DNA of 64,000 bases, from assembly GCA_029263725.1 (NCBI GenBank), contig JAJUFS010000002.1, forward strand, positions 785-64,784, written 5' to 3'. Below the pieces are notes generated by a model. It saw only the letters and a program-made list of their open reading frames with translations, ran no database searches and was not told the DNA's origin. A program made the translations under genes and the position numbers. Origin of the DNA: Gammaproteobacteria bacterium (GTDB taxonomy: Bacteria > Pseudomonadota > Gammaproteobacteria > Natronospirales > JAJUFS01). Shown one piece after another: positions 2,662-38,204 of the stretch. Position 1 is the stretch's first letter; the number at the start of each line of letters is the position of its first letter.

Positions 2662-3324
2662 TCAGCGGCCCGCTTCCGCGGGCCCTTCCTTTTCCATCAG
2701 CTCCACGGGCTGCGGAACAATGTCAGGCTTCGCCGGCGCGAGCACGACATCGTAGTCGGTGTTGTTCACGTAACCCGCTGCACCGTGCATGGAAATGATG
2801 CGCGCTGGCACGCCCACCACCACCGCATTGTCGGGAACGTCCCGGCAGACCAGCGAGTTCGCGCCGATGGCGACATTGTTGCCGACGCGAATCCTGCCGA
2901 TCACCTTCGCGCCCGGACCGATGTAGACGTTGTCGCCGATGACGGGCGCGCCCTGGCGCTTGCCGCGACAGGTCACGCCGATGGTGACATCCTGCGAGAT
3001 GTTGACGTTGCGGCCGATCACCGCCTCGTTGCTGATCCAGATGCCGCCGAAGTGACAGATGTAGAAGCCGGGCCCGATCCTGGCCACGCCCGCGATCATG
3101 ATCCCGTACTTGAAGCCGAGCTGCAGCATCACGAGCTTCATGACGGGCAGGAACAGGATGCGCAGCAGCGTACGCGAGGCGACGAACTGCCGCACCCTCA
3201 GCCAGAAGCCGTACTTGAATCCAGGCTCGATGAAATAGTGGCGCAGGAATGTCCGCGCCGAGACCGTGCCGGCCCGCCGGTAGAGATCCGAACGGACCAG
3301 GAACAAGAGTTCACTGAAAGTCAT
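2662..3324 (-). CDS. hexapeptide-repeat acyltransferase, serine O-acetyltransferase (CysE)-like
   Basis: Left-handed beta-helix repeats are present (IGRNVNISQDVTIG, IGDNVYIGPGAKVIG, VGNNVAIGANSLV). I chose the start at MTFSELLF (ATG 3324) behind a GAGGGGG RBS. The upstream part of the 271-aa ORF has no support. Confidence 0.8.
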   Translation of the reverse strand: MTFSELLFLVRSDLYRRAGTVSARTFLRHYFIEPGFKYGFWLRVRQFVASRTLLRILFLPVMKLVMLQLGFKYGIMIAGVARIGPGFYICHFGGIWISNEAVIGRNVNISQDVTIGVTCRGKRQGAPVIGDNVYIGPGAKVIGRIRVGNNVAIGANSLVCRDVPDNAVVVGVPARIISMHGAAGYVNNTDYDVVLAPAKPDIVPQPVELMEKEGPAEAGR

Positions 3325-3543
3325 TTCCCCCTCTCTCCCTTCTCCCCTGTGCTGCCACCATAGGCCGCCATATCCCGAATCGGTATTGGTGCCAGGCTGT
3401 GTGTTCCCGCACCGTTCCTGATCACCGCTCGCTGTTCTTAGGTGAAAGCCCGGTCGTGTTGTCGCCCGTGCGGCCACCCTTGATTTTCCCTGGCCCGGGC
3501 GCAGTCATCATCCATTCCCCTGCTGTCTTTGCCGGAGCCCGCC

Positions 3544-4761
3544 ATGCGTAACGTCTTCTGCCTGCTCTGCCTGGTGATGACCATTCCGCTCCTTTCCCCG
3601 CCCGTACTGGCCGGCGAGTGCCGGCCGGTCGCCACCGATCCGCCGAACGCGCGCGACCAGGAACCGCACTTCCCGCACCAGGCGCGCGCCTGCGAGAAGA
3701 AGACCAACGTTCCGCTCAAGGTGGAAGTGCTCGCCGAAGGGCTCGAGCATCCCTGGGCCGTGGAGGTGCTCGACGATGACGAAGGCCTGCTGGTGACGGA
3801 ACGCGCCGGCCGGCTGCGCCATGTCAGCCCTGACGGCAAGCTGAGCGAGCCCATACAGGGTTTGCCGGAAGTGTTCGCGCAAGGACAGGGCGGGCTGCTG
3901 GACGTCATTGCCGATGATGACTTCGACGACAACCGCCGCATCTACTGGTCGTTCAGCGAACCGCGCGAGGGCGGCAACACCACCGCGGTGGCGCGCGGCA
4001 CGCTGTCACGCGATTACGCGCGCGTGGAGGACGTCGAGATCATCTTCCGCGCTGAGCCGGTGTACGACGGCGACAAGCATTTCGGCTCGCGCCTGCTCAT
4101 CGATGACGACGACGATCACCTCTACATTACCCTCGGCGAGCGCTCCGACATGCCGATGCGCGAGTACGCGCAGCGGCTGGACTCGCATCTCGGCAGCGTC
4201 CTGCGCGTCACCACGGACGGCAAGCCCGCGCGCGGCAATCCATTCATGAATCGCCAGGACGCGAAACCGGAAATCTGGAGCTACGGCCACCGCAACATCC
4301 AGGCGGCGGCCTTCGACGATGACGACCGGCTATGGGTGATCGAACACGGCGCCAACGGCGGCGACGAACTCAACCTGGTGAAGAAGGGCGCGAACTACGG
4401 CTGGCCGAGGGTTGCCTACGGCATCGAGTACTCCGGTGAACCGATTCGCGGCGCCGTCACACACAAGGAAGGCTTCGAGCCGCCGGTGTATTACTGGGAT
4501 CCGGTGATCGGCCCTTCCGGCGCGCTCTTCCATGACGGCGACATGTTCGAGGAATGGGAAGACGACCTGCTCATCGGCGGGCTCGTCGCCACCGGCATCG
4601 TCCGGCTCGACATCCGCAACAGGAAGGTCGTCGGCGAAGAGCGCCTGCTCACCGAACGCGGCCGCCGCATCCGCGACATCGCCGAAGGCGACGACGGCGA
4701 GCTTTACGTCGTCACCGATGAAGCGAACGGGCAGTTGTGGAAAGTGACGCGTGGAAGGTGA
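3544..4761 (+). CDS. PQQ-dependent sugar dehydrogenase (soluble aldose/sorbosone dehydrogenase, YliI-like), secreted
   Basis: The signal peptide MRNVFCLLCLVMTIPLLSPPVLAG and the motifs GHRNIQAAAFD and GGDELNLVKKGANYGWP are typical of the six-bladed sGDH/YliI family. Confidence 0.88.
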   Translation: MRNVFCLLCLVMTIPLLSPPVLAGECRPVATDPPNARDQEPHFPHQARACEKKTNVPLKVEVLAEGLEHPWAVEVLDDDEGLLVTERAGRLRHVSPDGKLSEPIQGLPEVFAQGQGGLLDVIADDDFDDNRRIYWSFSEPREGGNTTAVARGTLSRDYARVEDVEIIFRAEPVYDGDKHFGSRLLIDDDDDHLYITLGERSDMPMREYAQRLDSHLGSVLRVTTDGKPARGNPFMNRQDAKPEIWSYGHRNIQAAAFDDDDRLWVIEHGANGGDELNLVKKGANYGWPRVAYGIEYSGEPIRGAVTHKEGFEPPVYYWDPVIGPSGALFHDGDMFEEWEDDLLIGGLVATGIVRLDIRNRKVVGEERLLTERGRRIRDIAEGDDGELYVVTDEANGQLWKVTRGR

Positions 4762-4799
4762 ATGGACAGGATCTGCTTTTCGCCGGATTCGCGACGCGA

Positions 4800-5864
4800 C
4801 TACAGCGGCGCGACGCGATCCAGCCAGTTGCCGCTGGCCATGAGTTCCTCGAACTCATCACCGAGGCGCGTGCTGGCGTCGATGACGGCACGCCACAGGC
4901 GAATGCGTTCTTCCTGGGGATAGCGATAGAAGTCCTTGCGGTCGGGAATCCTGCCGCCGGGAAGCGCGGTGACGAATTCCTGCGATGGCGCGAGCAGGAC
5001 AAGGTTGTCGAGGTTGCGGCCGCGAGCGCGCCGCCAGGGCAGCGCCTTGTCGAACCAGCCGGGCACGAGGTGATCGTAGAAATGCGGATAGAGCACGATC
5101 CCGTCATCCATGCCGAAGTCGATGTCGAAGTGATAATCGGTGAGCCCGCCGTCGCGATACTTGCCGCGCGGCGCGCCCGGCACCTCCACGCCTTCCAGCA
5201 CCAGCGGAATGGAACCGGAAGCCAGCAAGGCCGCACGCAGGTTGTCCGCGTCCAGCGGCAGCACGCGGGTGGGCAGGTCGCGCAGCGCCTGGAACGGCGA
5301 GTCGCTGCCGTTGCCGAAGATGACGCGCTCGAACTGCCAGCCAAGGGTTTTCCTGCTGACGGCATTCGCGAAACCCGCGATTGCCATGCTCAAGGCCAGC
5401 GGCAGGCGATTCTCGCTGCAGCTCATGCCACGGCAGCGCACGGTGACGACATGCAGCGCCAGGCGCGCATTCGCAAGGATCTCGCCGATGCCGTCTTCAC
5501 CGAGCACGTGATCGAGCATCACGCGCGCGACGCGTGACACTTCCGCGGCGTCCGGATCGGGATTGTCGTAACGCTGCCGCTCGACGTAGGCCTCTTCCAG
5601 GCGGCGCACGGCGGCAAGCGGATCGGCCTGCGCGGCACAGGCCATGCGCCAGCTGCCTATGGACGAACCAAGCAGGTGCAGCCGCGCCTCCCGCTCCACG
5701 GCTGCAAGCCTCGGGAACAGCACGCGATCGAGGCCCGCGATGGCGAGCCACTTCGGGCCGCCCGAGGCGCCTACCATCATGCGGACATCATCGAGCCTGA
5801 GGCCGCGGTCCCTGATGCGTGCCAGCGCCCGGGGTCCGGCAAGTATCTGCAAGGCGTGCGTCAT
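4800..5864 (-). CDS. patatin-like phospholipase family protein (cytosolic, no signal peptide)
   Basis: It carries a glycine-rich GASGGPKW segment, the GSSIG nucleophile elbow (GxSxG) and a YRDGGLTDY (DGG) catalytic Asp motif. ATG 5864 overlaps the yaiI stop by 4 nt (ATGA). The rest of the 564-aa ORF-track call is read-through in another gene's space. Confidence 0.82.
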
Positions 5865-6319
5865 GATTCTCCCTGTTTGCGTTTCGCGAGCAGCGCGTCG
5901 AGGTGATTCGCGAACGCCTTGCGCTCGGCCTGGCCCATGGCCGGCGGACCGCCGGACTGGATGCCGCTGGCACGCAAGGTGTCCATGAAGTCGCGCATGT
6001 TGAGGCGCTGGCGGATGGTATCCGGCGAGTAGAGTTCGCCGCGCGGGTTGAGCGCATGCGCGCCTTTCTCCATCACCTCGGCGGCCAGCGGAATGTCGGC
6101 GGTGACGACGATGTCGCCCGCTTCCGCGCGGCGGGCGATTTCGTTGTCGGCGACATCGAAGCCCGGCATCACCTGCAGGCTGCGAATGAACGGCGAGCGC
6201 GGCACGCGCACCGTGCGGTTGGCGACCAATGTCACCATCACGCGCGCGCGGTCCGCGGCGCGAAACAGGATTTCGCGAATCGCGACCGGACAGGCGTCTG
6301 CGTCGACCCAGATGTTCAT
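5861..6319 (-). CDS. yaiI: YaiI/YqxD family protein (UPF0178, DUF188)
   Basis: Close full-length resemblance to E. coli YaiI as I recall it ([11 protein letters not shown]..., [42 protein letters not shown]). Its start overlaps the macB stop by 4 nt. Confidence 0.92.
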
Positions 6320-8268
6320 TCCGATGCCAATGCCACGACAGGGTCCAGCGTCGCCGCCTTGCGCGCGGGCAGCCAGCCGAACAGCAGACCGATGATGAAG
6401 GCGGAGGAAAACGCCAGCAGCGCGGGGCCGATGGAGAACACCACGCGCGTGCCCAGCGCTTCCGCCACCATGCCCGCGCCGAAACCGGCGGCAACGCCGA
6501 GCACGCCGCCGATGAGACAGACCACGACCGCCTCGGTACTGAACTGCAGCATGATGTCGCCGGTGCGCGCGCCTACCGCCTTGCGGATGCCGATCTCGCG
6601 CGTCCGCTCCGTCACCGACACCAGCATGATGTTCATCACGCCGATGCCGCCGACCAGCAGCGAGATCGCCGCCACCGAACCGAGCATCACGGTAAGGGTG
6701 TTCTGTGTCGCCTCCACCGCTTCCAGCAGGGATGCGGTGTTGCGCACCTGGAAGTCATCGGCACCGTGGCGGGCGCGCAGCAGGCCGGTGACCGCGGACT
6801 CGATCTCGTCGATGCGCGCCGCATCCGCCACCTGCACCCGCACCGAGTTCAGGAACTGCGCGCCGAACAGGCGCACGAAGCCGGTGGACAGCGGCACCAG
6901 CACGACGTCATCCATGTCGGAGCCGAAGGCGCTCGCGCCCTTCGCCTCCAGTATGCCGATCACCTCGAAGGGCACGTTGCCGATGAGCACGTAACTGCCG
7001 ACGGCGCCGAGCGGACCATCGGGAAAGAGATTCTTCGCGACGGTCTGGCCGAGCACGGCGACGCCGGTGTAGCGGCGCACGTCGTCCTCGTTGATGAAGC
7101 TGCCGCGCACCACGTTCCATTCGCGCACGCTCGCATAGTCCGGCCACACGCCGACCACGCTGGACTGGTAATCGAGCCGGCCGACGCGCAGCGTGGTGCG
7201 CGTGCTGCGTTCCGGCGACACGCCGGTGATGCCGGGAATGTCGCGCAGCGCTTCCGCGTCCGCCGGGACGAGCGTGGCGATTTCCGCAGACCTCACGCCG
7301 CGCCCGCCGGGAAACACCATCAGCACGTTGGTGCCCATGGACTGGATGCGTTCCAGCACTTCCTGCTTGCTGCCGTTGCCGATGGCCATCATCGCCACCA
7401 CCGCGCCCACGCCGATGACGATGCCGAGCAGGGTGAGCAGGGTGCGGAACAGGTTGACGCGCAGCGAGCGGCCGGCCATCGCCACCGCTTCCATGAAGTC
7501 GCCCAGCCAGGCGCTGTAATTCGCGACATGCGAGGCCTCGGCTCGCGTTCGCACGACTTCGTTGACGCGGCCGCTGTCCTCGATGATGCGGCCGTCGAGG
7601 ATGCGGATGACGCGATCGGCATGCGCGGCCACCTGCGGCTCGTGGGTGATCAGCAGCACGGTCTTGCCCTCGGCATGGAACTGCCGCAGCAGCGCCATGA
7701 CTTCCTCGCTGGTCTGGCTGTCCAGTGCGCCGGTGGGCTCGTCGGCGAGGATGATGGCGGGTTCGTTGGCGAGTGCGCGCGCGATGGAGACGCGCTGCTG
7801 CTGTCCGCCGGAAAGCTCGTTGGGACGGTTCGTTTCCTTGCCGCCGAGGCCGAGCTTCTGCAGCAGCTGTCGCGCGCGCGCGGCGCGCGCCTCGCGCGGC
7901 CGCCCGGCGTAGATCTGCGGCAGCTCGACGTTCTCCGCGGCGCTCAGCGCCGGCACCAGGTTGTAGCGCTGGAACACGAAGCCGAAGACGTCGCGGCGCA
8001 GCTCGGCGAGCTCGTCGTCATCCAGCGTGCTCACGTCCTTGCCGTTGACGAAATAGCGGCCTTCGGTGGCGCGATCGAGACAACCGAGGATGTTCATCAG
8101 CGTGGACTTGCCGGAACCCGACTGGCCCATGATGGCGACGAACTCGCCGGGATGGACCTGCAGCGAGACGCCGTCGAGTGCGCGAAACTCGGTCGCGCCG
8201 CTGCGATAGACGCGGCTGACGTTCTCGACCTTGAGCAGCGGCTGGGCGCCGTTCATGGCCTCGCTCAC
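6316..8268 (-). CDS. macB: MacB-type fused ABC ATPase/FtsX-permease (macrolide export family)
   Basis: It has an N-terminal ABC domain ([44 protein letters not shown]), a large periplasmic domain and a C-terminal FtsX-type 4-TM module. GTG 8268 overlaps the macA stop (GTGA); ATG 8256 is an alternative start. Confidence 0.93.
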
Positions 8269-9431
8269 AGCCGCGCCCCGAAGCGCGGCGTGCGCCGCGC
8301 GTCAGCCGCCGCCATGGCCGCCGCAGGCATGAGCACGACATCGCCTTCCTTGAGGCCGGAGCGGACTTCCGCCTCGCTGCGGTTGGCGATGCCGATCTCC
8401 ACCGTGCGCTTCTCGATGCGCTCGCCGACAAGCACCTCGGCCTGGTAGCGGCCGCGCTCGCCCGGCACGGGCACGAGCGCGGCAAGCGGCACCACCGGCA
8501 CGTTCTCGGCGCGCTCCAGCACGAAGAACACCTGCACGGTCATGTCCGGCAGCAGCAGGCGCTCCTCGTTGGCGACGTCGATCAGCGCCTTGTAGAGCAC
8601 CACATCGTTGACGATCTCGGGCGTGGGCTGGATCTGCCGCACGATGCCTTCGAAGCGCCGGTCGGGCATGCCCAGCGTGGTGAAGTACGCCGGCATGCCG
8701 GGGCGGATGCGGTTCACGTCCGCCTCGGCCACTTCCGCCCACACCGTCATGGTGCCGAGATCGGCGATGCGCACGATCTCCGGCGCGGTCTGGGTGGCGT
8801 TCACGGTCTGGCCCTCGACGGCGCTGCGCGAAACCACCGTGCCCTTCATGGGCGCATAGATGCGGGTGTAGCCGAGATTGGCGCGGTCTTCCTCGACGGT
8901 GGCGCGCGCCGAACGGATCTGCGCCTCGGTGGCGCGAATGCCGGCCTGCAGCATGGCGACGTTCGCCTCCTGCTCGTCGACGGCTTCCTTGCTGACCGCG
9001 TTGCTGCCGAGCAGGCGGCGATTGCGCTCGAGACGCAGCTCCGCGAGCCGAAGTTCGGCCTGCTGGCGCGCCTTCTGCGCCTCGAGATTGTCGAGGTTGG
9101 CCTCGTCCTTGCGCAGCCGGGCCTCATAGACGGTGGGATCGATCTCGGCGATCAGCTGGCCCTGCTCGACCTCGTCGCCGATGTCGACATGCATGCGGCG
9201 CAGCTGGCCGGAAACCTGCGTGCCGACGTCGACATATTCCTTGGGCTGCAGCGAGCCCAGCGCCGTGACGGTGTTCTCCACCGTGCCCCGCTCGACCCTG
9301 ACCTGCGGGCGCTGCCGGCTCGCCTCGTCATCGCCGTTGCCGCGCAGGAAATGCCAGGCGATCGCGGCCAGCGCGACGACGAGCAGCGCGACGGGGATCC
9401 AGCGGATTCGCCGGGAGGAAGGACTGGGCAT
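8265..9431 (-). CDS. macA: MacA-type periplasmic adaptor (HlyD/RND MFP family)
   Basis: An N-terminal membrane anchor is followed by a long coiled-coil hairpin (EARLRKDEANLDNLEAQKARQQAELRLAELRLERNRRLL), lipoyl and beta-barrel regions. It is immediately upstream of and coupled to macB. Confidence 0.9.
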   Translation of the reverse strand: MPSPSSRRIRWIPVALLVVALAAIAWHFLRGNGDDEASRQRPQVRVERGTVENTVTALGSLQPKEYVDVGTQVSGQLRRMHVDIGDEVEQGQLIAEIDPTVYEARLRKDEANLDNLEAQKARQQAELRLAELRLERNRRLLGSNAVSKEAVDEQEANVAMLQAGIRATEAQIRSARATVEEDRANLGYTRIYAPMKGTVVSRSAVEGQTVNATQTAPEIVRIADLGTMTVWAEVAEADVNRIRPGMPAYFTTLGMPDRRFEGIVRQIQPTPEIVNDVVLYKALIDVANEERLLLPDMTVQVFFVLERAENVPVVPLAALVPVPGERGRYQAEVLVGERIEKRTVEIGIANRSEAEVRSGLKEGDVVLMPAAAMAAADARRTPRFGARL

Positions 9432-9664
9432 GCATGGACTCCTGCAGGACGGGCCACGGCATTGACTGCGGATGCGGCGCGAAGGTTCAACGTGGCCCCG
9501 GATTTTCGCATGTTGCGGACCGTCGATGCGCCCCTGTCTGTCCCGGCATACACTCCTGACAGGGAATTTTCCTCAGGAAATCCTTCGTGGTTACGCGATC
9601 CCGATTTCGGGATGGCGGCAGAACGCTGTTAACATCGGCGCTTTCCCATCGCCATACCCCCGTC

Positions 9665-10501
9665 ATGCCGAATTTCCGTCGCCAACTTTTCCTGCTTGCG
9701 GCCGTGCTGCTGTCCTCGGCGTGCGCCACCGACGCGCGTCTCGCACGGCTGGAGGAAGCCAGCGCCATGCAGGTCCGCCTGCTGGCAGAACACAACGTCA
9801 TGCTCAACCAGCAGGCCGAGCTCATGGCGCAATTGATCGAAGCGCAGCAGCAGCAGCGCGAGGCCATCTCCGGCCTCGATAGCGCGCTGCAGCGCGAGCG
9901 AGCGCGCCTCGAGAAGGTGGTGCACAAGCTCGACCCGGAAAGCGACACGCCCGAGCCGGAGACGGTGCCCGTGCAGGTGGTCGATCACGAGGGCAAGGCG
10001 GTGGTCGGCCGCAATGAATGGGCCTGGTTCGACCTGCTCGGCCGCAATCTCAAGGCGCGCGTCGATACCGGTGCGCTCACCTCCTCGCTGAACGCCATCG
10101 ACCTGCAGCCCTTCGAGCGCGACGGCCGCCGCTGGATACGCTTCCGCGTGCCCGACCAGGAGCATCCCGACGGCGGCGACGTCTACGAGACCCGGCTGGT
10201 GCGCTACGTGCGCATCAAGCAGGCCTCGGCGGACGGCATGGACCGCCGCCCGGTGGTGAAGCTGCTGGTGCGGGTGGGCGAGCTGGTGGACGAAACCGAG
10301 TTCACGCTCAACAACCGCGAGGACATGCTCTACCCGGTGCTGCTCGGCCGCAGTTTCCTGCGCGATGTCGCCATCGTCGATGTCTCGCGCGTCTTCGTGC
10401 AGCCGAAGTTCCGCCCCGAGGAATCGCCGCCCGCCGTGGCCGAAGCCGAGGCGGACGCCGCGTCAGGCAACGGTGATGAAGCCACGGAGAGCGCCGAATG
10501 A
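9665..10501 (+). CDS. secreted retropepsin-like aspartic protease domain protein (annotated family name: ATP-dependent zinc protease / RimB-like)
   Basis: It has a signal/lipoprotein-like N-terminus (MPNFRRQLFLLAAVLLSSAC), a Q/E/L-rich helical segment, the core GRNEWAWFDLLGRNLKARVDTGALTSSLNA...WIRFRV and an acidic tail. The stop overlaps the next start (ATGA). Confidence 0.8.
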   Translation: MPNFRRQLFLLAAVLLSSACATDARLARLEEASAMQVRLLAEHNVMLNQQAELMAQLIEAQQQQREAISGLDSALQRERARLEKVVHKLDPESDTPEPETVPVQVVDHEGKAVVGRNEWAWFDLLGRNLKARVDTGALTSSLNAIDLQPFERDGRRWIRFRVPDQEHPDGGDVYETRLVRYVRIKQASADGMDRRPVVKLLVRVGELVDETEFTLNNREDMLYPVLLGRSFLRDVAIVDVSRVFVQPKFRPEESPPAVAEAEADAASGNGDEATESAE

Positions 10502-12018
10502 AGAGGCCGAACCGTACCGCGTTCTTCCTGCTGGTGGCGGCCCTGCTCGGCGCCGGCGCCTTCCTGACCTGGTACCGCCACGTCACCTTCGAAGTGCCCT
10601 TCCTGCCCGGCGAACGCCGCCAGGTCTGGTCGGTGGAAGCGCAGATCGACTTCATCGCCATGGGCGAGGCGGTGACCGCCTCGCTGGCCGTGCCCGGCAG
10701 CCAGCCCGGCTTCGAGCTCATCGGCGAACACACCGCCAGCCCGGGCTACGGGCTCGCCTTCGTGGAGAACAACGGCGCGCGCCGCGCCGAATGGTCCATC
10801 CGCCGCGCCGAGGGCCGGCAGACGCTGTATTACCGCGCCGACATGATGGTCGATCCCGAGACCCTGGAGGACAAGGTCGGCGTGCCGCCGCCGATCCGCC
10901 AGGTGGTGCGCGACGGCGGCCCGCAGGCCACGGCCGCGGCGCAGCTGCTGCAGAACGCCGAGGCGCGTTCCGCCAACCCGTACACGCTGGCCCGCGAGCT
11001 CATCCACGAGTTCAACCAGGAAACCCAGACCGCGCGCCTGCTGGAGCAGGAAAAGCCGCGCGGCGAATGGCTGGTGGAGCTGCTCAACCAGGCGGGCGTG
11101 GCGGCGCGCGTGGTGCTGGCGCTGGAACTGGAGGACGGCCGCCGCCGGCAGTCGCCGGTGCAGGTGCTGCAGGTCTTCGACGGCGAGCGCTATGCGCTGT
11201 TCAACATTCGCAGCGGCCGCCAGGGCCAGCGCGCCAACCTGCTCTTGTGGGAGTACCAGTCCGGCTCGCTGCTGGACGTGGTCGGCGGCCGCAACTCGGA
11301 AGTGAACTTCGCGATGATCCTGCAGGAAGTGCCGATCAATCGCATGCTGGAGGCCGGCGTGCTGCCCGCTGCGCAGCACTTCCTGGATTTCTCCATCCAC
11401 AGCCTGCCGCTGTCCGAGCAGACGCTGTTCAAGGGCATCCTGCTGATCCCGGTGGGCGTGCTGATCGTCTGCTTCATGCGCATCTTCGTCGGCCTGCGCA
11501 CTTCCGGCACCTTCATGCCGGTGCTGATCGCGCTCGCCTTCATCCAGACCAGCCTGGTCACCGGCCTGGTCGGCTTCCTGCTGGTGGTGGCCGCGGGCCT
11601 GATGATCCGCTCCTATCTGTCGAAGCTGAACCTGCTGCTGGTGGCGCGAATATCCACGGTGATCATCTCGGTGATCATCATCATCGCGGCGTTCTCGGTG
11701 CTGTCCTTCCAGCTCGGTCTCACCGAGGGGCTGAAGATCACCTTCTTCCCGATGATCATCCTGGCCTGGACCATCGAGCGCATGTCCATCCTCTGGGAAG
11801 AGGAAGGCCCGAAGGAAGTGCTGGTGCAGGGCGGCGGCTCGCTGTTCGTCGCGCTGATCGCCTACGTGGCGATGAGCCACCCGGTGGTGCGGCATCTCAC
11901 CTTCAATTTCCTCGGCCTGCAGCTGGTCATGCTGGCGCTGCTGCTGGTGCTCGGCAATTACACCGGCTATCGCCTGAGCGAGTTCCGCCGCTTCCGGCCG
12001 CTGGTGGAGCGCGGCTGA
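10498..12018 (+). CDS. inactive transglutaminase-like domain fused to 7TM module (UUP1 family membrane protein)
   Basis: The architecture read from the sequence is one N-terminal TM helix, a soluble domain of about 270 aa and a C-terminal block of about seven hydrophobic helices (LLIPVGVLIVCFMRIFVGLRTSGTFMPVLIALAF...). Its position between the protease and the ATP-grasp matches the described family context. Confidence 0.78.
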   Translation: MKRPNRTAFFLLVAALLGAGAFLTWYRHVTFEVPFLPGERRQVWSVEAQIDFIAMGEAVTASLAVPGSQPGFELIGEHTASPGYGLAFVENNGARRAEWSIRRAEGRQTLYYRADMMVDPETLEDKVGVPPPIRQVVRDGGPQATAAAQLLQNAEARSANPYTLARELIHEFNQETQTARLLEQEKPRGEWLVELLNQAGVAARVVLALELEDGRRRQSPVQVLQVFDGERYALFNIRSGRQGQRANLLLWEYQSGSLLDVVGGRNSEVNFAMILQEVPINRMLEAGVLPAAQHFLDFSIHSLPLSEQTLFKGILLIPVGVLIVCFMRIFVGLRTSGTFMPVLIALAFIQTSLVTGLVGFLLVVAAGLMIRSYLSKLNLLLVARISTVIISVIIIIAAFSVLSFQLGLTEGLKITFFPMIILAWTIERMSILWEEEGPKEVLVQGGGSLFVALIAYVAMSHPVVRHLTFNFLGLQLVMLALLLVLGNYTGYRLSEFRRFRPLVERG

Positions 12019-13007
12019 TGCGCGCACTGCTGGACAGGCTGTTCCCGGCGCGCGCGATGAGGGAAATCGGCGTGCTTGGCATGAACGGGCGCAACATCAA
12101 TTACATCAGCCGCTACAACTCGCGGCAGCTGTATCCGCTGGTCGATGACAAGCTGAAGACCAAGCAGCTCGCGCTGGAACATGGCGTGACCACGCCGGAG
12201 CTGATCGGCGTGATCTCGGCGCAGCACGACGTGCGCCGCATCGCCGAGCTGGTGAAGGGCCATGACGGCTTCTGCATCAAGCCCGCCAAGGGTTCGGGCG
12301 GCAAGGGCATCCTGGTGGTGGCGCGCGTCGAGGACGGGCGCTTCTTCCGCACCAATGGCACCGAGATCCCGCTCATCGACCTGCAACGGCATCTTTCCAA
12401 CGTGCTCGCCGGCCTGTTCTCGCTGGGCGGCGCGCCGGATGTCGCCATCATCGAGGCGCTCATCCGTCCCGACGAGGTGTTCCGCGACTATTCCTACGCC
12501 GGCGTGCCGGACATCCGCGTGGTGGTTTTCCAGGGCGTGCCGGTGATGGCCATGGTACGGCTGTCCTGCGCGGCCTCGAACGGCAAGGCCAACCTCCACC
12601 AGGGCGCGGTCGGCGTCGGGCTCGCCATGGACACCGGCCGCGCGGTCTGCGCCGTGCAGCGCAACCGGCCCGTATTCATCCATCCCGATACCGGACATCC
12701 GCTGGACGGCCTCGTCATCCCGCACTGGCATGCGCTGCTGGAACTGTCGTGTGCGTGTGCGGACATGACCGGACTGGGCTATCTTGGCGTGGACCTGGTG
12801 ATGGACCGCGAGCGCGGCCCCATGCTGCTGGAACTGAACGCCCGCCCCGGGCTCGCCATCCAGATGGCGAACGGCACGGGGCTGCTGCCGCGGCTGCGGC
12901 GGGTGGAAGCCGAGCCGCGCATCGTCAAGGCCGGCGTGCGCGAGCGAGCCGCCTTCGCGGCCCGGCATTTCGGCACGCGTCCTGCCGCCATCGCCGCGGT
13001 CGCCTGA
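12018..13007 (+). CDS. alpha-L-glutamate ligase-like (RimK-related) ATP-grasp protein
   Basis: MRALLDRLF...GMNGRNINYISRYN, CIKPAKGSGGKGILVV and LLELNARPGLAIQ are ATP-grasp/RimK-like signatures. ATG 12018 shares one base with the upstream TGA. The long N-terminal part of the 880-aa ORF-track call lies in another gene's space. Confidence 0.85.
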   Translation: MRALLDRLFPARAMREIGVLGMNGRNINYISRYNSRQLYPLVDDKLKTKQLALEHGVTTPELIGVISAQHDVRRIAELVKGHDGFCIKPAKGSGGKGILVVARVEDGRFFRTNGTEIPLIDLQRHLSNVLAGLFSLGGAPDVAIIEALIRPDEVFRDYSYAGVPDIRVVVFQGVPVMAMVRLSCAASNGKANLHQGAVGVGLAMDTGRAVCAVQRNRPVFIHPDTGHPLDGLVIPHWHALLELSCACADMTGLGYLGVDLVMDRERGPMLLELNARPGLAIQMANGTGLLPRLRRVEAEPRIVKAGVRERAAFAARHFGTRPAAIAAVA

Positions 13008-21049: not shown

Positions 21050-21108
21050 GGGAAATGCCGCTTGCAAGCCCGTCTGCCCAGCCATAGGAAGGCTGGCAGG
21101 AGGTGCAC

Positions 21109-23658
21109 ATGCCGCAGGCATCCGCGGAACGGCTTTCCGAGTACCGCCGCAAGCGCGACTTCCACAAGACCCCGGAGCCGTCCGGCGACCCGCAGCCGGA
21201 AACGGAGGGTCATCTGTATGTCATGCACAAGCATGCGGCGAGCCACGATCACTTCGACCTGCGGCTGGAACAGGACGGCGTGCTGCGCAGCTGGGCGCTG
21301 CCGAGAGGACCCAGCCTGGAACCCGGCGAGCGGCGACTCGCGGTGGAAGTGGAAGATCATCCGCTGGAGTACGGCGGCTTCGAGGGCGTGATCCCCAAGG
21401 GCGAGTACGGCGGCGGCACGGTCATGCTCTGGGATGCCGGCCGCTGGAAGGTAAACGGCAAGGCGGACGAGAACCACGTCGATTTCATCCTCGAGGGCCG
21501 CAAGCTCAAGGGCGCCTGGACGCTGGTGCGCACCCGCGGCAGCGACAGGAAGAAGAAGCGCGGCGGCCGCAACAACAACTGGCTGCTGATCAAGCGCAGC
21601 GACCACCCGCGACAGCGGCTCGCGCCGGACGACTTCAGCGTCGCCACCGGGCGCAGCATCGAGGAAATCGCCGCCGATCACGACGCGGTCTGGACCCGCG
21701 CCGGCGAGGTGCATGCCGGCACGGGCTTTGACATCGCGAAGCTTCCCGGCGTGAGGAAGGCGCGCGCCGTCGCGATACCGAAGCCACAGCTTGCGACGCT
21801 CGCCGATGCCATTCCGGCGGGCGACGACTGGCTGCACGAGATCAAGTTCGACGGCTACCGCGTGCTGGCCGTCATCGATGACGGCAAGGTGCGGCTCGTC
21901 ACCCGCAACGGCCACGACTGGACCGCACGCTTCCCGAAAATCGCCGCCGCGCTCGGCAGGCTCGATGTGAAGCACGCGGTACTCGATGGCGAAGCCGTCG
22001 CGCTCGCCGCGGACGGCACCACCAGCTTCCGCGCCCTGCAGGAAGCGCTGTCCGCGGAACGCAGCTCACACCTCGTCTACCAGTTGTTCGACGCGCTGCA
22101 GGTGGAGCAGTGGGACATCTCGGGCTCGCCGCTGCTCGATCGCAAGCGCGTCCTGCGCCAGCTGCTGGCGGCGCATCCGGATGACGCGCGCATCCGCTAT
22201 TCCGATCACATCGTGGGTCACGGCGAACAGATGTACCGGCACGCCTGCGAGCTTGGCCTCGAAGGCATCATCAGCAAGCGCTGTGACGGCGCCTACCGCA
22301 GCGGCCGCAATCGCCAGTGGCTGAAGGTGAAATGCACAAAGACCCGCGAGTTCGTGGTCGGCGGTTTTACCAGGGGCGAGCGCGCCGGCTTCGGCGCGCT
22401 GCTGCTGGGCGGCTACGAGGATGGCGACTTCGTGTACGCAGGGCGCGTCGGCAGCGGCTTCAGCGAGCGGCAGATCCGCTCGCTGCGCGAGAGGCTGGAT
22501 GCCCTGCGTCGCGACGATTCGCCGTTCGCCGGTCCCGTGGAGGACGCAAGACAGGCCACCTGGGTGTCGCCGGAGCTGGTGGTCGAAGTGGAATTCACCG
22601 AACGCACCCGCGACGGCCGGCTGCGGCATCCGGTGTTTCGCGGAGTGCGCGAGGACCGCAATGCGGGCGAGATTGGGCTTGGAGGTGACGAGCCCATGCC
22701 GAATGTTGCCGGCACGACCGCAAGCGCGACCCCACGCCGCAGGCTGCGCCGCGACGAGGCATCGGTCGCGGGTGTGCGCATCACGCATCCCGAGCGGGTG
22801 ATGTACCCCGAGACGGGGCTGACCAAGCTGGAGCTGGCGCGCTTCTACGAGGACATCGCCGACTGGATCATGCCGGGCATCGCCGGCCGGCCGCTGTCGC
22901 TGCTGCGCTGCCCGGAAGGCCGCAGCGGCGAATGTTTCTTCCAGAAGCACCTCGGCCGCACGCTGGGCAGGCAGGTGCCGCGCGTCGGCTTCCGCGAAAG
23001 CAGCGGCGTAAAGCAGTACTGCTACGCGGAGTCCATCGAGCATCTCGTCGCGCTGGTGCAGGCGGGCGTGCTGGAATTCCATCCCTTCGGCAGCCGCGTG
23101 GATGATCTCGAGCATCCCGACATCATGGTCTTCGACCTCGATCCTTCTCCCGGCGTGTCCTGGGAACAGTTGCTGCGCACCACCCGCGAGCTGCGCGAAC
23201 GCATCGAAAGCGAGTACGGCCTCGCCTGCTTCCTGCGCACCACCGGCGGCAAGGGCCTGCACATCGTCGTGCCGCTTGAACCGCGCGCCGACTGGGACGA
23301 AGTGAAGGCCTTCGCACAGGCGGTGTCCCGGCAGCATGCCGCGGACGATCCGAAGCGGCACACCACCAGCCTGTCCAAGGCGAAGCGCAAGGGCAGGCTC
23401 TTCATCGATTACCTGCGCAACACGCGTGGCGCGACCGCGATCGCTTCCTATTCCACGCGCGCCCGCGAGAACGCCACCGTCGCCGTGCCGCTGCGCTGGG
23501 ACGAACTCACCTCGTCATTGCGCTCCGATCACTACAACGTCGGCAACCTGCGTCGCCGCCTGATCGCGCTCAAGCAGGATCCCTGGGCAGATTTCACCGC
23601 TGCCGCGAAACCGCTGACGCCCGGGCTGCTCGCGGCCGCCGGCGTGAAGGGAGGCTGA
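21109..23658 (+). CDS. ligD: ATP-dependent DNA ligase D (phosphoesterase-ligase-polymerase order)
   Basis: It has an N-terminal 3'-phosphoesterase domain (YRRKRDFHKTPEP, YVMHKHAASHDHFDLRLE), a central ligase domain (WLHEIKFDGYR adenylation Lys motif) and a C-terminal LigD polymerase/primase domain (FFQKH..., MVFDLDP, RTTGGKGLHIVVPL). GGAGG lies 5 nt upstream of ATG 21109. Confidence 0.96.
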   Translation: MPQASAERLSEYRRKRDFHKTPEPSGDPQPETEGHLYVMHKHAASHDHFDLRLEQDGVLRSWALPRGPSLEPGERRLAVEVEDHPLEYGGFEGVIPKGEYGGGTVMLWDAGRWKVNGKADENHVDFILEGRKLKGAWTLVRTRGSDRKKKRGGRNNNWLLIKRSDHPRQRLAPDDFSVATGRSIEEIAADHDAVWTRAGEVHAGTGFDIAKLPGVRKARAVAIPKPQLATLADAIPAGDDWLHEIKFDGYRVLAVIDDGKVRLVTRNGHDWTARFPKIAAALGRLDVKHAVLDGEAVALAADGTTSFRALQEALSAERSSHLVYQLFDALQVEQWDISGSPLLDRKRVLRQLLAAHPDDARIRYSDHIVGHGEQMYRHACELGLEGIISKRCDGAYRSGRNRQWLKVKCTKTREFVVGGFTRGERAGFGALLLGGYEDGDFVYAGRVGSGFSERQIRSLRERLDALRRDDSPFAGPVEDARQATWVSPELVVEVEFTERTRDGRLRHPVFRGVREDRNAGEIGLGGDEPMPNVAGTTASATPRRRLRRDEASVAGVRITHPERVMYPETGLTKLELARFYEDIADWIMPGIAGRPLSLLRCPEGRSGECFFQKHLGRTLGRQVPRVGFRESSGVKQYCYAESIEHLVALVQAGVLEFHPFGSRVDDLEHPDIMVFDLDPSPGVSWEQLLRTTRELRERIESEYGLACFLRTTGGKGLHIVVPLEPRADWDEVKAFAQAVSRQHAADDPKRHTTSLSKAKRKGRLFIDYLRNTRGATAIASYSTRARENATVAVPLRWDELTSSLRSDHYNVGNLRRRLIALKQDPWADFTAAAKPLTPGLLAAAGVKGG

Positions 23659-23659
23659 C

Positions 23660-24436
23660 ATGGCGGCACGCGCGATGTGGAAAGGCATCATCCGCTTCGG
23701 CGAGGTCCGCGTGCCGGTGAAGATGTATGCCGCCATCCAGGACCGCGACATCCATTTCCGCCTGCTTCATCGCAAGGACCAGGAGCCGGTGAAGCAGGTG
23801 ATGTACAACCCGGACACCGAAAGCGTGGTCTCCGCCGAGGAAGTCGAGCGCGCCTTCATCAATGAGAACGGCAATCTCGTCATCCTGCAGCGCGAGGAGC
23901 TGGAGGCGCTCAAGCCCGAGCCCTCGCGCGACATCGAGGTATTCCGCTTCTTCAGGACGGGCGCCGTCGATCACCGCTGGTACGAGCGGCCCTACTACCT
24001 GGGCCCGGACGGTTCAGGCAGTGACTACGCCGCGCTGGCGAAGGCGATGGCAGACGGCGGCTTCGAGGGACTGGCGCGCTGGACCATGCGCAACAGGGAA
24101 TACATGGGCGTGCTGCGGCTGCATGCGGGCTACCCGATGCTGATGTCCCTGCGCAGCGACGAGGAAGTGATCGCCGTCGAGGACCTTGAGGCGCCGAAGG
24201 GCAAGCCGCTGGATGAGCGCGAGCTCGCCATGGCGCGGCAGCTCATCGGCATGCTGGAGGCGCCCTTCGAACCCGAGAGCTATCACGACGAATACCGCGA
24301 ACGCGTGCAGGAAATGCTCGCCGCCAGGCAGGCAGGCGGCAAGGTGAAGCTGCTGAAGCCGCGCAAGGCAAAGGCCGCGCCCGACATCGCACGTGCGCTG
24401 GAAGCAAGCCTCAAGCAGATGCAGCGGCAGGCATAG
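23660..24436 (+). CDS. ku: Ku protein (NHEJ DNA-end-binding), paralogue 1
   Basis: The gene starts MAARAMWKGIIRFGEVRVPVKMYAA..., the canonical bacterial Ku N-terminus, 1 nt after the ligD stop. Confidence 0.95.
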   Translation: MAARAMWKGIIRFGEVRVPVKMYAAIQDRDIHFRLLHRKDQEPVKQVMYNPDTESVVSAEEVERAFINENGNLVILQREELEALKPEPSRDIEVFRFFRTGAVDHRWYERPYYLGPDGSGSDYAALAKAMADGGFEGLARWTMRNREYMGVLRLHAGYPMLMSLRSDEEVIAVEDLEAPKGKPLDERELAMARQLIGMLEAPFEPESYHDEYRERVQEMLAARQAGGKVKLLKPRKAKAAPDIARALEASLKQMQRQA

Positions 24437-24440
24437 GGCA

Positions 24441-25466
24441 ATGGCGGAAGACGACGAGCAGAACGGGGAAGAGGCGCTGCGGCCAAGGCCGTTCTGGTCG
24501 GGCACGATCGCCTTCGGCCTGGTCAGCCTGCCGGTGAGCCTGTTTCCCGCCAACCGCAAGCGCGGCGTTTCATTGCGCATGGTGGACCGCCAGGGCATGC
24601 CGCTGGCGCGGCGCTACTGCTGCGAGAAGGACAACGAGCTGCTCGAGCGCGAGGACATCGTGCGCGGCTACGAGGTGGACAAGCAGTCCTGGGTGGTAAT
24701 CAAGGACGAGGAACTGGAAGCGCTGGCGCCGGAGAAGTCGCGCGAGATCGACCTGCGCCGTTTCGTGAATCTGGCCGAGATCGATCCCATCTACTTCGAG
24801 CGCGGTTATTTCCTCGTGCCCGAGGAAGGCTCCACCAAGGCCTACCGGCTGCTGGCGCGGGCGATGGAAGAAGAACGGCGCGCCGGCATCGCCACCTTCG
24901 TGATGCGCGGCAAGGAATATCTCGTCGCCATCATCGCCGAGCGCGGCATCCTGCGTGCCGAGACGCTGCGCTTTCATGACGAGATCCGCACGCCCGAATA
25001 CGTCGGCCTGCCGGAACTTGCCGAAGCCGCCGCCGACAGCGTGCGGCAGATGCAGAAGGCGATGCAGGCCTGGTTCGCGAAACGCTTCGATCGCAAGGAG
25101 CTCGTTGACCCGCAGACCGAACGCCTCGAGGCGCTGGTGACACGCAAGTTCAAGGCAGGCAAGGACGTACTCCATGCGCCCGAGGAAATCGCCGAGGAGC
25201 TCGCCGCGGAGAGCAACGTCATCGACCTCATGCAGGTGCTGAAGGAGCGCATGCAGGGCAAGGGCGCGCCGGCTGCGCCGGAAGGCGAGCCGCCCGCCTC
25301 GCGCCGCCGGCGCGGCGGCGGCCAGGCGCATCGCACGCCGGAAGAACCGGCGCGCGAACTCGAGAAACTGTCGCGCGCCGAGCTCTACGCCCGCGCCCAG
25401 GAACGCGACATTCCCGGGCGCAGCCGCATGAGCAAGGAAGAACTCATCGAGGCGCTGCGGCACTGA
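24441..25466 (+). CDS. ku: Ku protein paralogue 2 with C-terminal HeH/Rho_N-like tail
   Basis: The Ku core is RPFWSGTIAFGLVSLPVSLFPA.... After a basic linker (SRRRRGGGQAHR), the C-terminus LEKLSRAELYARAQERDIPGRSRMSKEELIEALRH resembles the Rho N-terminal/SAP-like helix-extension-helix motif. Confidence 0.9.
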   Translation: MAEDDEQNGEEALRPRPFWSGTIAFGLVSLPVSLFPANRKRGVSLRMVDRQGMPLARRYCCEKDNELLEREDIVRGYEVDKQSWVVIKDEELEALAPEKSREIDLRRFVNLAEIDPIYFERGYFLVPEEGSTKAYRLLARAMEEERRAGIATFVMRGKEYLVAIIAERGILRAETLRFHDEIRTPEYVGLPELAEAAADSVRQMQKAMQAWFAKRFDRKELVDPQTERLEALVTRKFKAGKDVLHAPEEIAEELAAESNVIDLMQVLKERMQGKGAPAAPEGEPPASRRRRGGGQAHRTPEEPARELEKLSRAELYARAQERDIPGRSRMSKEELIEALRH

Positions 25467-25882: not shown

Positions 25883-27112
25883 TCACTCGTAGCGCAGCGA
25901 TTCGATGGGATCGAGCTGCGCGGCCTTGGCGGCCGGCAGGATGCCGAAGACGATGCCCACCGCCGCCGAGAATCCCACCGACAGCAGGATGGCCCACAAC
26001 GGCACGTGCGCCGGCGGGAAGCCCGGCAGCATCATGGACACCAGCGCGCCCACGCCATAGCCGAAGGCGATGCCGATGATGCCGCCGAGCAGGCACAGCA
26101 CCACCGCCTCGATCAGGAACTGCAGCAGGATGTCGGCGCGGCGCGCACCCAGCGCCTTGAGGATGCCGATCTCGCGGGTACGCTCGGTCACCGATACCAG
26201 CATGATGTTCATGATGCCGATGCCGCCCACCAGCAGCGAGATGCCGACGATGCCGCCGGCCACCGCGGTGATGGTGTTGACGATGGCGTTGAAGGATTCG
26301 GTCAGCTGCTCCGCGGTCTGCACGCGGAAGTCGTCCGCCTCGCCCCGCTTCAGTTCATGCTGCTGACGCAGCAGCCGGCGGATGCGGTCGATGGTCTCGT
26401 CCATGCGCGCAATGTCATCGACCAGCAGCTGGATCTGGATGTCCAGCTCGCGCGATGCGCCGATCAGCCGGTGCATGGTGTTGAACGGCAGCAGGATGTA
26501 ATCGTCCTGCGAGAAGCCGAGCAGCTCGCCGCGCGCTTCCATCACGCCGACGATGCGGCACCAGTCATTGCCGATGCGGATGAACTCGCCGAGCGGCGAG
26601 CCCTTGATCTCCAGGTTCTCCACCACGTCGACGCCGACCAGGCATACCAGCCGCCGCCGCTCGTCGTCGCTGGGCGTGAAGAAGCGGCCCTCGCCGGGAA
26701 ATATCTGGTTCACGTCCATGTAGCTGGCGCCGACGCCGAAGACGCGCGTCGCCGTGGACTTGGCGCGCCAGGTCACCTGCATGGACGGCGATGTGGGGCT
26801 GTAGAGAATCGGCGTGACGTGCGAGATGCCCTCGATGCGATGCCGGATGACGTTGAGGTCCTGCACCGTGAGCCGCGCCAGCCTGCCCTGCATCTGCTGC
26901 TCGAAGGGCGTGAACGAGCGGATGGTGATGGAGTTCGAACCCAGGCCCTGGAACTGCGCATTCACGGTGTGCGACAGGCCCTGCACGATGGACACCACCG
27001 CGATCACCGAGGCCACGCCGATGATGATGCCGAGCGCGGTGAGAAACGAGCGCAGGCCATGCGCGCGGATGGCGGCGAAGGCGGAGCGCAGGCTTTCCAT
27101 GAGCAGGTACAT
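25883..27112 (-). CDS. ABC transporter permease, MacB/FtsX type (separate from its ATPase)
   Basis: TM1 is followed by a large periplasmic domain and a C-terminal FtsX module ([28 protein letters not shown]). The start shares one base with the ATPase stop (TGATG). Confidence 0.9.
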   Translation of the reverse strand: MYLLMESLRSAFAAIRAHGLRSFLTALGIIIGVASVIAVVSIVQGLSHTVNAQFQGLGSNSITIRSFTPFEQQMQGRLARLTVQDLNVIRHRIEGISHVTPILYSPTSPSMQVTWRAKSTATRVFGVGASYMDVNQIFPGEGRFFTPSDDERRRLVCLVGVDVVENLEIKGSPLGEFIRIGNDWCRIVGVMEARGELLGFSQDDYILLPFNTMHRLIGASRELDIQIQLLVDDIARMDETIDRIRRLLRQQHELKRGEADDFRVQTAEQLTESFNAIVNTITAVAGGIVGISLLVGGIGIMNIMLVSVTERTREIGILKALGARRADILLQFLIEAVVLCLLGGIIGIAFGYGVGALVSMMLPGFPPAHVPLWAILLSVGFSAAVGIVFGILPAAKAAQLDPIESLRYE

Positions 27113-27810
27113 CAGGCGTGCTCCCTGCGCTGGTCGGATTCGATGCGCCCGTCGCGGAGGCGGATGACGCGGCGGCAATGCGCGGCGATCTCCGGCTCGT
27201 GCGTGACGATGACGATGGTCTGGCCGGCGCGGTGCAGTTCATCGAACAGCGCCATGATCTCCGCGGTAGTGGCGGAATCGAGATTGCCGGTGGGCTCGTC
27301 GGCGAGCAGGATGGCCGGCCGCCCGACCAGCGCGCGCGCCACCGCGACGCGTTGCCTCTGGCCGCCGGAAAGCTGGTTGGGGAGGTGATCCAGGCGCGCG
27401 CCCAGGCCGACGCGCTCCAGCGCCTCGGTGGCAAGCTCGCGGCGCCTCGCCAATGGCAGCTTGCGGTACACCAGCGGCTGCATGACGTTCTGCAACGCCG
27501 TCGCGCGCGGCAGCAGGTTGAAGCTCTGGAAGATGAAACCGATGTCGCGGTTGCGGACTTCGGCGAGCTCGCTGTCGTTCATGCCGGCGACCATGCGGCC
27601 GTTGAGCTCGTAGCTGCCGGCGGTAGGCCGGTCCAGGCAGCCGATGATGTTCATCATGGTGGACTTGCCGGAGCCGGAAGCGCCGATGATGGCGACGTAC
27701 TCGTTGCGCAGGATGTCGAGATCGACCCCGTCCAGCGCGTGCACCACCTGGTCGCCCATGCGGTACTCGCGGCGCACGCCGCGCAGCCGGATCACGCACT
27801 CGGCGTTCAT
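27112..27810 (-). CDS. ABC transporter ATP-binding protein (MacB/LolD-like)
   Basis: [33 protein letters not shown] and [11 protein letters not shown] are the Walker A, signature and Walker B motifs. There is an ATGA overlap with the upstream adaptor gene. Confidence 0.93.
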
Positions 27811-28982: not shown

Positions 28983-28995
28983 GCGCGCTCCTTGC

Positions 28996-29730: not shown

Positions 29731-29819
29731 GGGCCTCCCCTCACTGAATGGTTCTTGTGAGGGCGACTTTACCCCAACGGCCCGCGCGAACGCATGCCTG
29801 ACTCCCGTCACGGACCTGA

Positions 29820-29844
29820 AAAGGCCCGGACATGCCGGGCCTTT
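29820..29844 (-). terminator. Rho-independent terminator after the CMD gene (hairpin usable on both strands)
   Basis: The 10-bp stem AAAGGCCCGG/CCGGGCCTTT has loop ACATG. On the minus-strand transcript it is followed by TTTTCAGG. Confidence 0.7.
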
Positions 29845-29853
29845 CCTGTTCGT

Positions 29854-32054: not shown

Positions 32055-32079
32055 GCTGTTCCCTGGGTGATGGCGCGCG

Positions 32080-36802: not shown

Positions 36803-36811
36803 GCGGCCTCC

Positions 36812-37999: not shown

Positions 38000-38049
38000 C
38001 ACTAGGCTCCGAAAGGGTTCGGGGAAAACATCCCGACTGCTGCGCAATA

Positions 38050-38073: not shown

Positions 38074-38204
38074 AACTGGTGATAGAATTCCGTATATCAA
38101 GGGGCAGGACGGCTGTACCGCGAAGGCCGCCTACCTTATAAGAGCCCTCCTGACAGCCTTGTGTCAGGAAGGTTGATCCAGGGTGAAACCGAGCGAGTAC
38201 CGGA

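Follow-up and report, generated by a model that had tools for sequence, protein, structure and literature searches.

The 64,000-nucleotide stretch of contig JAJUFS010000002.1 from a Gammaproteobacteria bacterium (GenBank assembly GCA_029263725.1, positions 785 to 64,784 of the forward strand; hereafter the window) carries within positions 4800-9431, on the minus strand, four consecutive open reading frames that encode a MacA-type adaptor, a MacB-type ATP-binding cassette (ABC) transporter, a YaiI (DUF188) protein and a patatin-like protein. The best explanation of this arrangement, to which we assign a probability of about 0.6, appears to be a lineage-specific operon fusion brought about by local rearrangement, in which an ordinary MacAB pump would have been joined by two hitch-hiker genes whose products act independently of it. 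Each component is an unremarkable representative of a known family, and the architecture of the operon is unusual but species-specific. A first-pass annotation of the window, made by a model from the sequence alone, had described the pump as hard-wired to the other two proteins; the four genes that it listed, with their order, strand and coordinates, were all recovered:

8265-9431, minus strand: macA-type periplasmic adaptor of 388 aa, anchored in the membrane by its N-terminus; ATG start codon at 9431-9429, with AGGAG upstream at 9443-9439
6316-8268, minus strand: macB-type transporter in which ABC ATPase and permease are fused, 650 aa if started at GTG 8268 and 646 aa if started at ATG 8256
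5861-6319, minus strand: yaiI (DUF188/UPF0178), 152 aa, cytoplasmic, a putative NYN/PIN-like nuclease
4800-5864, minus strand: patatin-like predicted Ser-Asp acyl hydrolase, 354 aa, cytoplasmic

All four reading frames show a strong coding signal, with a GC content at third codon positions (GC3) of 0.91 for macA, 0.90 for macB, 0.84 for yaiI and 0.82 for the patatin-like gene, a bias that fits real genes of a window with 67% GC.

The association of the pump with the two downstream genes was seen in a single species only. For macB, the comparison included 80 loci from species representatives of the Genome Taxonomy Database (GTDB), which are the closest relatives found and encode MacB proteins with 41-60% identity to that of the window. 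Neither yaiI nor a patatin gene of the subfamily found here lies directly downstream of macB in any of these loci; moreover, no patatin gene of this subfamily is present anywhere in them, and yaiI was detected in one only, in Brenneria, 4.4 kb from macB. The macA gene is located directly upstream of macB in 70 of the 80 loci. Of the 78 loci with sufficient sequence beyond macB, 46 carry an outer-membrane factor (OMF) gene there, on the same strand and no more than 600 nt away. The typical gene order of this branch is therefore macA-macB-OMF, and it is the OMF slot that yaiI and the patatin-like gene take in the window. The first-pass annotation correctly stated that the four-gene operon contains no OMF gene, a feature that sets it apart from most of its relatives; the accompanying statement that MacAB operons normally contain only the adaptor and the ABC/FtsX fusion is not borne out by these counts.

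The reciprocal comparisons give the same picture. Genes for MacA or MacB are not found in the flanks (up to 6-8 kb) of any of the 89 other loci of the patatin family (80 from metagenomes, seven from look-ups and two on Pseudoalteromonas chromids). Clustering of the patatin neighbours reveals no partner shared by all loci; the most frequent neighbour, a 4HBT thioesterase, is represented in 16 of 90 loci. The yaiI contexts are unrelated to the pump in the five relatives that were examined, four at 67-77% identity and E. coli. Thus, the claim that the pump is tied to the lipase and to YaiI finds no support, and the macB-DUF188-patatin arrangement, for which the first-pass annotation had proposed a comparative search, was not found outside this species, so that the pump link shows no conservation among the loci compared.

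These counts bear directly on the readings put forward in the first-pass annotation (a module for lipid or lysolipid handling and export, or one for envelope stress or toxin export), which can be spelled out as a four-gene module for envelope stress or lipid export in which the patatin-like protein would make or detoxify a lipid or lysolipid, MacAB would export it and YaiI would be an accessory or regulatory component. MacB-type transporters handle amphipathic and lipidic substrates in other systems, which speaks for such a module, as do the tight packing with overlapping stop and start codons, the predicted hydrolase that looks catalytically intact, and the intactness of the genes in all sampled contigs of the species. 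Nevertheless, the pump link is missing in all three sets of loci (0/80 for macB, 0/89 for the other patatin genes and 0/5 for the other yaiI contexts), the slot usually holds an OMF gene, the predicted targets of YaiI are nucleic acids and not lipids (PMC5499597; PMC12456014), and overlaps are common in this genome; altogether, a four-gene module appears very improbable. A functional link to the pump would connect cytoplasmic lipid hydrolysis with a MacB-type exporter and provide the first functional context for DUF188; the comparative evidence points the other way.

Within the species, the arrangement is uniform. The identical YaiI protein is encoded on many JGI, ENA, NCBI and Logan contigs, including GCA_035305905.1 (labelled Gammaproteobacteria bacterium). 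The gene order is the same in all ten of the same-species contigs that were inspected, five of which span all four genes; their DNA identity to the window is 99.2-100%, without indels. Contigs this similar are too close to measure selection; they show the intactness of the genes within one population only. The complete four-gene layout was found solely in contigs with at least 99.2% identity, that is, in one species.

A propensity of yaiI to follow other genes closely is seen in several lineages. The gene stands alone in E. coli, as the first-pass annotation had indicated, and in two of the compared loci (L098 and L181), and follows a gene for a YgjP-like peptidase in Methylomagnum, a membrane protein gene in locus L180, a GNAT gene in L087 and a patatin gene in L182. 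In four cases, the start codon of yaiI overlaps the stop codon of the upstream gene, and the four upstream genes are unrelated: the membrane protein gene in L180 (143-146), the GNAT gene in L087 (2716-2719), the patatin gene in L182 (1678-1681) and macB in the window (6316-6319). These observations suggest that, in contrast to its E. coli counterpart, yaiI in these lineages is habitually a promoter-less, promiscuous operon-tail gene.

The proximity of yaiI to the patatin gene extends beyond the species. In two other lineages, represented by L182 and L087, yaiI is located within ~0.5 kb of a patatin gene whose product is 62% identical to the window protein. The order in L182 is reversed relative to the window, with the patatin gene preceding yaiI, and the two are again joined by an ATGA overlap; the patatin-like protein of this locus is the neighbour-joining sister of the window protein. 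In L087, the GNAT gene and yaiI are followed by a small secreted-protein gene in the reverse orientation and then by the patatin gene. Such a small protein (141-147 aa, with a signal peptide and no Pfam match) is encoded divergently beside the patatin gene in both loci (3172-3597, minus strand, in L087; 48-491, minus strand, in L182) and is not present in the window; the two versions are 46% identical and homologous, so these two loci share ancestry. Because the yaiI-patatin neighbourhood is also present in these two lineages, it seems to predate the fusion with the pump.

Within the gammaproteobacterial patatin subclade that includes the window protein, yaiI is close by in two of the five non-window contexts as opposed to none of the 84 other loci (Fisher p ~0.003). 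The pairing is absent in the sister subclade (L001, L085 and L179), where a divergent GNAT gene lies beside the patatin gene (L001, L085/L086 and L179); the encoded proteins, of 176-181 aa, are ~70% identical among the three, whereas the GNAT protein encoded ahead of yaiI in L087 is only a distant relative of them (28-34% identity along part of the protein). On the Pseudoalteromonas chromids, yaiI and the patatin gene share a replicon and are 66-70 kb apart. No fused DUF188-patatin protein was found among the database matches to a concatenated YaiI-patatin query, which was covered to 71% at most; none of the matches outscored stand-alone patatins. The YaiI proteins encoded near patatin genes are 72-73% identical to the window YaiI, the same as the unlinked ones. 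The pairing is thus clade-restricted and could reflect either inherited synteny reshuffled by small inversions or, as a weak sign, a functional pair.

The latter option amounts to an alternative in which yaiI and the patatin-like gene belong together as a true two-gene unit, with YaiI regulating or processing for the hydrolase or with both proteins taking part in a shared stress response, and MacAB is an incidental upstream source of a promoter. The closeness of the two genes in three lineages and three different layouts, and the concentration of this adjacency in one clade, argue for such a unit. Conversely, the three lineages are relatives with local synteny in common (the small secreted-protein gene next to the patatin gene in L087 and L182), which may point to one inherited, shuffled neighbourhood; the sister subclade lacks the pairing; the Pseudoalteromonas genes are far apart and no fusion protein is known among the matches; the linked YaiI proteins are ordinary orthologues; and a NYN-like protein that works with a lipase has no mechanistic precedent. 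A two-gene unit of this kind is therefore an unlikely alternative. A bolder version holds that YaiI/DUF188, a family widespread in bacteria, is the partner of a distinct, uncharacterised clade of cytoplasmic patatin-like proteins, that rearrangements in at least three gammaproteobacterial lineages have left the two genes side by side, twice with ATGA coupling in opposite orders, and that in the window they are wired to the MacAB promoter, so that enzymes directed at RNA and at lipids would be induced together with the efflux pump; we consider this proposal rather unlikely. Be that as it may, the proximity of the two genes in three lineages is a modest lead, open to testing, on two families that are both large and uncharacterised.

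The junctions between the four genes are as follows:

8265-8268, minus strand: GTGA, the macA stop codon and a possible GTG start of macB; the alternative macB start is ATG 8256-8254, 8 nt past the macA stop
6316-6319, minus strand: ATGA, the macB stop codon and the yaiI start, an unambiguous overlap
5861-5864, minus strand: ATGA, the yaiI stop codon and the start of the patatin-like gene, an unambiguous overlap

The N-termini of YaiI and the patatin-like protein align residue for residue with those of their homologues, and the ATGA starts are the sole sensible ones. The macA/macB overlap is ambiguous because public gene calls on same-species contigs choose ATG 8256 as the macB start (646 aa), which leaves an 8-nt gap after macA. 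Accordingly, the statement that every junction is a 4-nt overlap stands for the two ATGA junctions, whereas at the first one the GTGA letters are present but may not form an overlap. The further conclusion that these overlaps are the signature of obligate co-expression is overstated, given that similar ones occur elsewhere in the window: in a rough gene map based on GC3, there are ATGA overlaps at 10501, 27807 and 31128, 1-nt overlaps at 12018 and 27112, and ~20 tightly spaced co-directional gene pairs in all. Stop/start overlaps of this type are the commonest class of gene overlap in bacteria, above all in TGA-rich genomes with a high GC content. Overlaps of 4 nt are common in this window and not unusual at this operon; they are compatible with promoters inside macB and carry no information on function. 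The locus thus has a cautionary value: in a high-GC genome, stop/start overlaps are not evidence of a functional module.

With respect to expression, there is no intergenic space between the genes for promoters or terminators; most probably, the macA promoter therefore also drives yaiI and the patatin-like gene, co-transcription being the likeliest arrangement. The upstream region and the downstream boundary are:

9432-9664, no strand: divergent intergenic region of 233 nt between macA and the operon for the RimB-like protein, the 7TM-transglutaminase and the ATP-grasp protein, delimited by public gene calls mapped to the window
3529-4761, plus strand: gene for a pyrroloquinoline quinone (PQQ)-type glucose/sorbosone dehydrogenase, convergent with the operon and forming its downstream boundary

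The former would be the sole non-coding space open to an operon promoter. A promoter scan that included this region gave no match to the sigma-70 consensus, and terminator-like matches were located within coding sequence and did not exceed the frequency in shuffled sequences; no significant hairpin follows the stop codon of the patatin-like gene (z 0.18). These scans are uninformative at 67% GC. No Rfam match was obtained across 4300-10000 at E<=1. There is no convincing Shine-Dalgarno sequence upstream of yaiI, so that coupling of its translation to termination on macB is plausible; the patatin-like gene has AGGGAG at 5874-5869, 4 nt ahead of its ATG. The GC3 and codon-usage scores of these two genes are inside the range of the window, that of the patatin-like gene being ~1.5 standard deviations low; a foreign origin of the two genes was considered and set aside, as these values contain no clear signal of horizontal transfer.

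The pump itself shows the expected components. MacA matches HlyD_D23 with 77 bits and passes the cut-off of the RND_mfp model (TIGR01730, 181 bits against 94.9), and narrowly misses that of the MacA equivalog model NF008606 (325 bits against 342); the 388-aa macA gene call is also present in L088-L092. In MacB, three domains score above the respective Pfam gathering scores, namely ABC_tran (PF00005, 118 bits, residues 31-179), MacB_PCD (PF12704, 165 bits, residues 276-494) and FtsX (PF02687, 75 bits, residues 531-643), whereas the full-length match to the equivalog model NF007826 reaches 686 bits and not the cut-off of 966. The ATPase motifs are present (Walker [10 protein letters not shown], LSGGQQQR as the signature and ILADEPT as Walker B), the C-terminus (...[10 protein letters not shown]) is full length, and the gene for the membrane-fusion adaptor lies directly upstream, with macA at most 8 nt from macB. 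By these scores and motifs, the pump is of the MacB type without being strictly orthologous to MacAB of E. coli.

A gene of the OEP family in the window (32293-33738) is part of an operon for a tripartite efflux system of the resistance-nodulation-division (RND) type (32293-38347, minus strand), which also encodes an adaptor (36812-38347) and an AcrB-family pump (33674-36811) and adjoins a pair of genes for an ABC-2 exporter (30370-32084). The product of this OEP gene is a candidate partner of the MacAB pump, which lacks an OMF of its own. The window encodes, in addition, a second MacB-type system in a split form (25883-29853, minus strand), which consists of an HlyD adaptor (27807-29030), an ABC ATPase (27115-27810) and a MacB_PCD+FtsX permease (25883-27238), with ATGA and TGATG junctions; these genes are preceded by one for a membrane protein with a Yip1 domain (28999-29853).

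The assignment of YaiI is secure at the level of the family: the full-length matches pass both PF02639 (163.3 bits, gathering score 24.3) and NF001095 (194.5 bits, cut-off 139). Acidic residues D6, D8, D55, D58, D69 and D75 are invariant among the homologues; in the AlphaFold2 (AF2) model (predicted local distance difference test score, pLDDT, of 83), D6 and D8 follow the strand 2-6, D55 and D58 the strand 45-49, and D75 the strand 70-72. Within the PIN domain-like superfamily, DUF188 has been classified in the NYN-like group, closest to NYN_YacP and with no assigned function, and its conserved acidic residues follow the core strands S1, S3 and S4 (Matelska et al. 2017, PMC5499597), in line with the grouping with PIN-like folds that the first-pass annotation had mentioned for this family. 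In Firmicutes, the DUF188 gene is found in the dnaG-sigA operon (PMC5499597), and B. subtilis YqxD was recovered in an RNA-binding proteome (PMC12456014). A Foldseek search with the YaiI model produced no match at E<=1e-3; the NYN RNase Rae1/YacP ranked second (E 8.7e-3, TM-score 0.39) among generic Rossmann-like folds, a weak match that agrees, weakly, with the NYN placement in the literature. YaiI may be regarded as a putative NYN/PIN-like metal-dependent nuclease.

The patatin-like protein is more diverged from characterised families. The match to PF01734 (26.0 bits, E 1.2e-5) falls under the gathering score of 27.7, no NCBIfam model was matched, and the precomputed Pfam patatin matches of the homologues range from strong to faint. 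In an alignment of 29 homologues from several phyla, by which invariance was judged, the four patatin blocks are readily identified:

5751-5771, minus strand: block I, the glycine-rich oxyanion-hole motif GASGGPK, residues 32-38, with A33, S34, G35, G36 and K38 invariant
5655-5669, minus strand: block II, GSSIG, residues 66-70, with the nucleophile Ser68 and with G66, S67, S68 and G70 invariant
5205-5222, minus strand: block III, ASGSIP, residues 215-220, with A215, S216, I219 and P220 invariant
5145-5153, minus strand: block IV, DGG, residues 238-240, with the catalytic Asp238 and with D238, G239 and G240 invariant

The AF2 model of the protein (pLDDT 91, predicted TM-score, pTM, 0.92) retrieves patatin-fold lipases as all of the top 25 Foldseek matches in the PDB, including CapV, CapE, ExoU, patatin, VipD, cPLA2 and iPLA2-beta. 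Because motifs and fold agree, the patatin assignment holds despite the sub-threshold Pfam score. The first strand of the model begins at residue 5, so that the protein has no signal peptide or membrane anchor; the retention of the GxSxG and DGG motifs and the cytoplasmic location indicated in the first-pass annotation are hence corroborated by alignment and model. The intact motifs suggest a lipid acyl-hydrolase activity. Searching PDB sequences with a profile of the family gave nothing significant (PlpD at E 0.24); its top match, to BurrH repeats (E 0.024), was rejected as a short compositional resemblance.

More than 4,500 homologues make up the subfamily. Its members from Gammaproteobacteria, Gemmatimonadota and Myxococcota are 55-60% identical, and it possesses a specific conserved C-terminal region (YPHF...PGWFDK...WR...IPDRxDF). 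With no curated model and no solved relative by sequence, the subfamily represents a large, well-defined target for characterisation. Some of its members have neighbours implicated in lipid or acyl metabolism: in L001, genes for inositol-1-phosphate synthase and a CDP-alcohol phosphatidyltransferase (9230-10988) are located beside the patatin-subfamily gene, and in 16 marine or sediment loci a gene for a 4HBT (hotdog) thioesterase lies downstream of it (e.g., L150, 4203-4628). These neighbours are compatible with a role of the subfamily in acyl-lipid metabolism and are not universal.

The structural matches raise the possibility that the patatin-like protein is a signal-activated, membrane-degrading effector akin to CapV and CapE, involved in abortive infection or acting as a toxin, with YaiI and/or MacAB as partner or immunity component. 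These effectors of the cyclic oligonucleotide-based antiphage signalling system (CBASS) are indeed the best fold matches (E ~1e-5, TM-score ~0.47-0.49) and of similar size (~300-345 aa). However, their identity to the window protein is only 11-13%, and ExoU, patatin and cPLA2 match as well; PADLOC returned no match for the patatin-like protein or YaiI and only generic ABC matches for MacB; no gene for a CD-NTase or another signal-generating enzyme is found in the window operon or in any related context examined; and the family, being highly conserved across phyla and usually encoded by stand-alone genes, is unlike fast-evolving defence genes. A defence function of this kind is accordingly extremely improbable.

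Taken together, the data favour the operon fusion, which can be envisaged as follows. MacA and MacB would make up a tripartite pump of the usual ATP-driven kind and would rely on an OMF borrowed from another locus, for instance, from the OEP gene at 32293-33738. A local rearrangement would have put a pre-existing yaiI-patatin pair directly after macB, in the slot that holds the OMF gene in relatives. YaiI would be translated by termination-reinitiation and the patatin-like protein from its own AGGGAG site, and the putative NYN-type nuclease and the Ser-Asp acyl hydrolase would be co-expressed with the pump while acting independently. Several points weigh against this scenario. The databases searched contain no relative between ~64% and 99% identity, the range in which conservation within the genus or family would show; no sampled contig carries a damaged copy of any of the four genes; and the tight packing and the full-length C-terminus of MacB imply that the junction is not a fresh scar. 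The recurrence of yaiI near the patatin gene in two other lineages may mean that the pair is selected as a unit, and the transcription of both genes from the macA promoter is something that we infer. Furthermore, the MacB family includes lipid and lipoprotein handlers such as LolCDE, and a lipid link is not absurd a priori.

Two other gene clusters in the window deserve mention. The divergent neighbour operon (9665-13007, plus strand) encodes a RimB-like putative zinc protease (PF05618), a protein that combines an inactive transglutaminase with seven transmembrane helices (PF14400 and PF14402) and an ATP-grasp_ST protein, with one 4-nt and one 1-nt overlap at its junctions; it looks like a conserved three-gene system of the peptide-modification type. 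A cluster for non-homologous end joining (21088-25466, plus strand) encodes a full LigD of 856 aa (phosphoesterase, ligase and primase-polymerase) followed by two Ku paralogues, the second of which has a Rho_N-like C-terminal tail.

Compared with known systems, the patatin-like protein shares with CapV/CapE, ExoU, VipD, PlpD and plant patatin the alpha/beta fold, the four blocks (GGxK, GxSxG, ASxxxP and DGG) and the invariant Ser-Asp dyad. It differs from the known bacterial patatins in the lack of a CD-NTase partner, a secretion signal, an autotransporter or a toxin-delivery domain, and from the solved patatins in its low identity (10-14%, TM-score ~0.4-0.5), the atypical block I (ASGGxKW) and the extra conserved C-terminal region. 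YaiI has the same acidic residues after predicted core strands as the YaiI/YqxD family (UPF0178) and the same two long C-terminal helices as NYN_YacP/Rae1; the E. coli gene stands alone between proC and aroL, whereas the window gene overlaps macB upstream and the patatin-like gene downstream. The pump resembles E. coli MacAB(-TolC) and the three-gene macA-macB-OMF operons known from Pseudomonas and further Proteobacteria (type VII ABC tripartite efflux pumps) in the anchored MacA-type adaptor and in the fusion of the nucleotide-binding domain with the MacB periplasmic core and FtsX, with intact ATPase motifs; macA directly precedes macB, as in the majority of the related loci, and, as in E. 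coli MacAB, the operon contains no OMF gene. Unlike the known MacAB pumps, it misses the equivalog cut-offs and is only 41-60% identical to all species representatives found, and, in contrast to the macA-macB-OMF operons, the slot after macB is filled by yaiI and the patatin-like gene.

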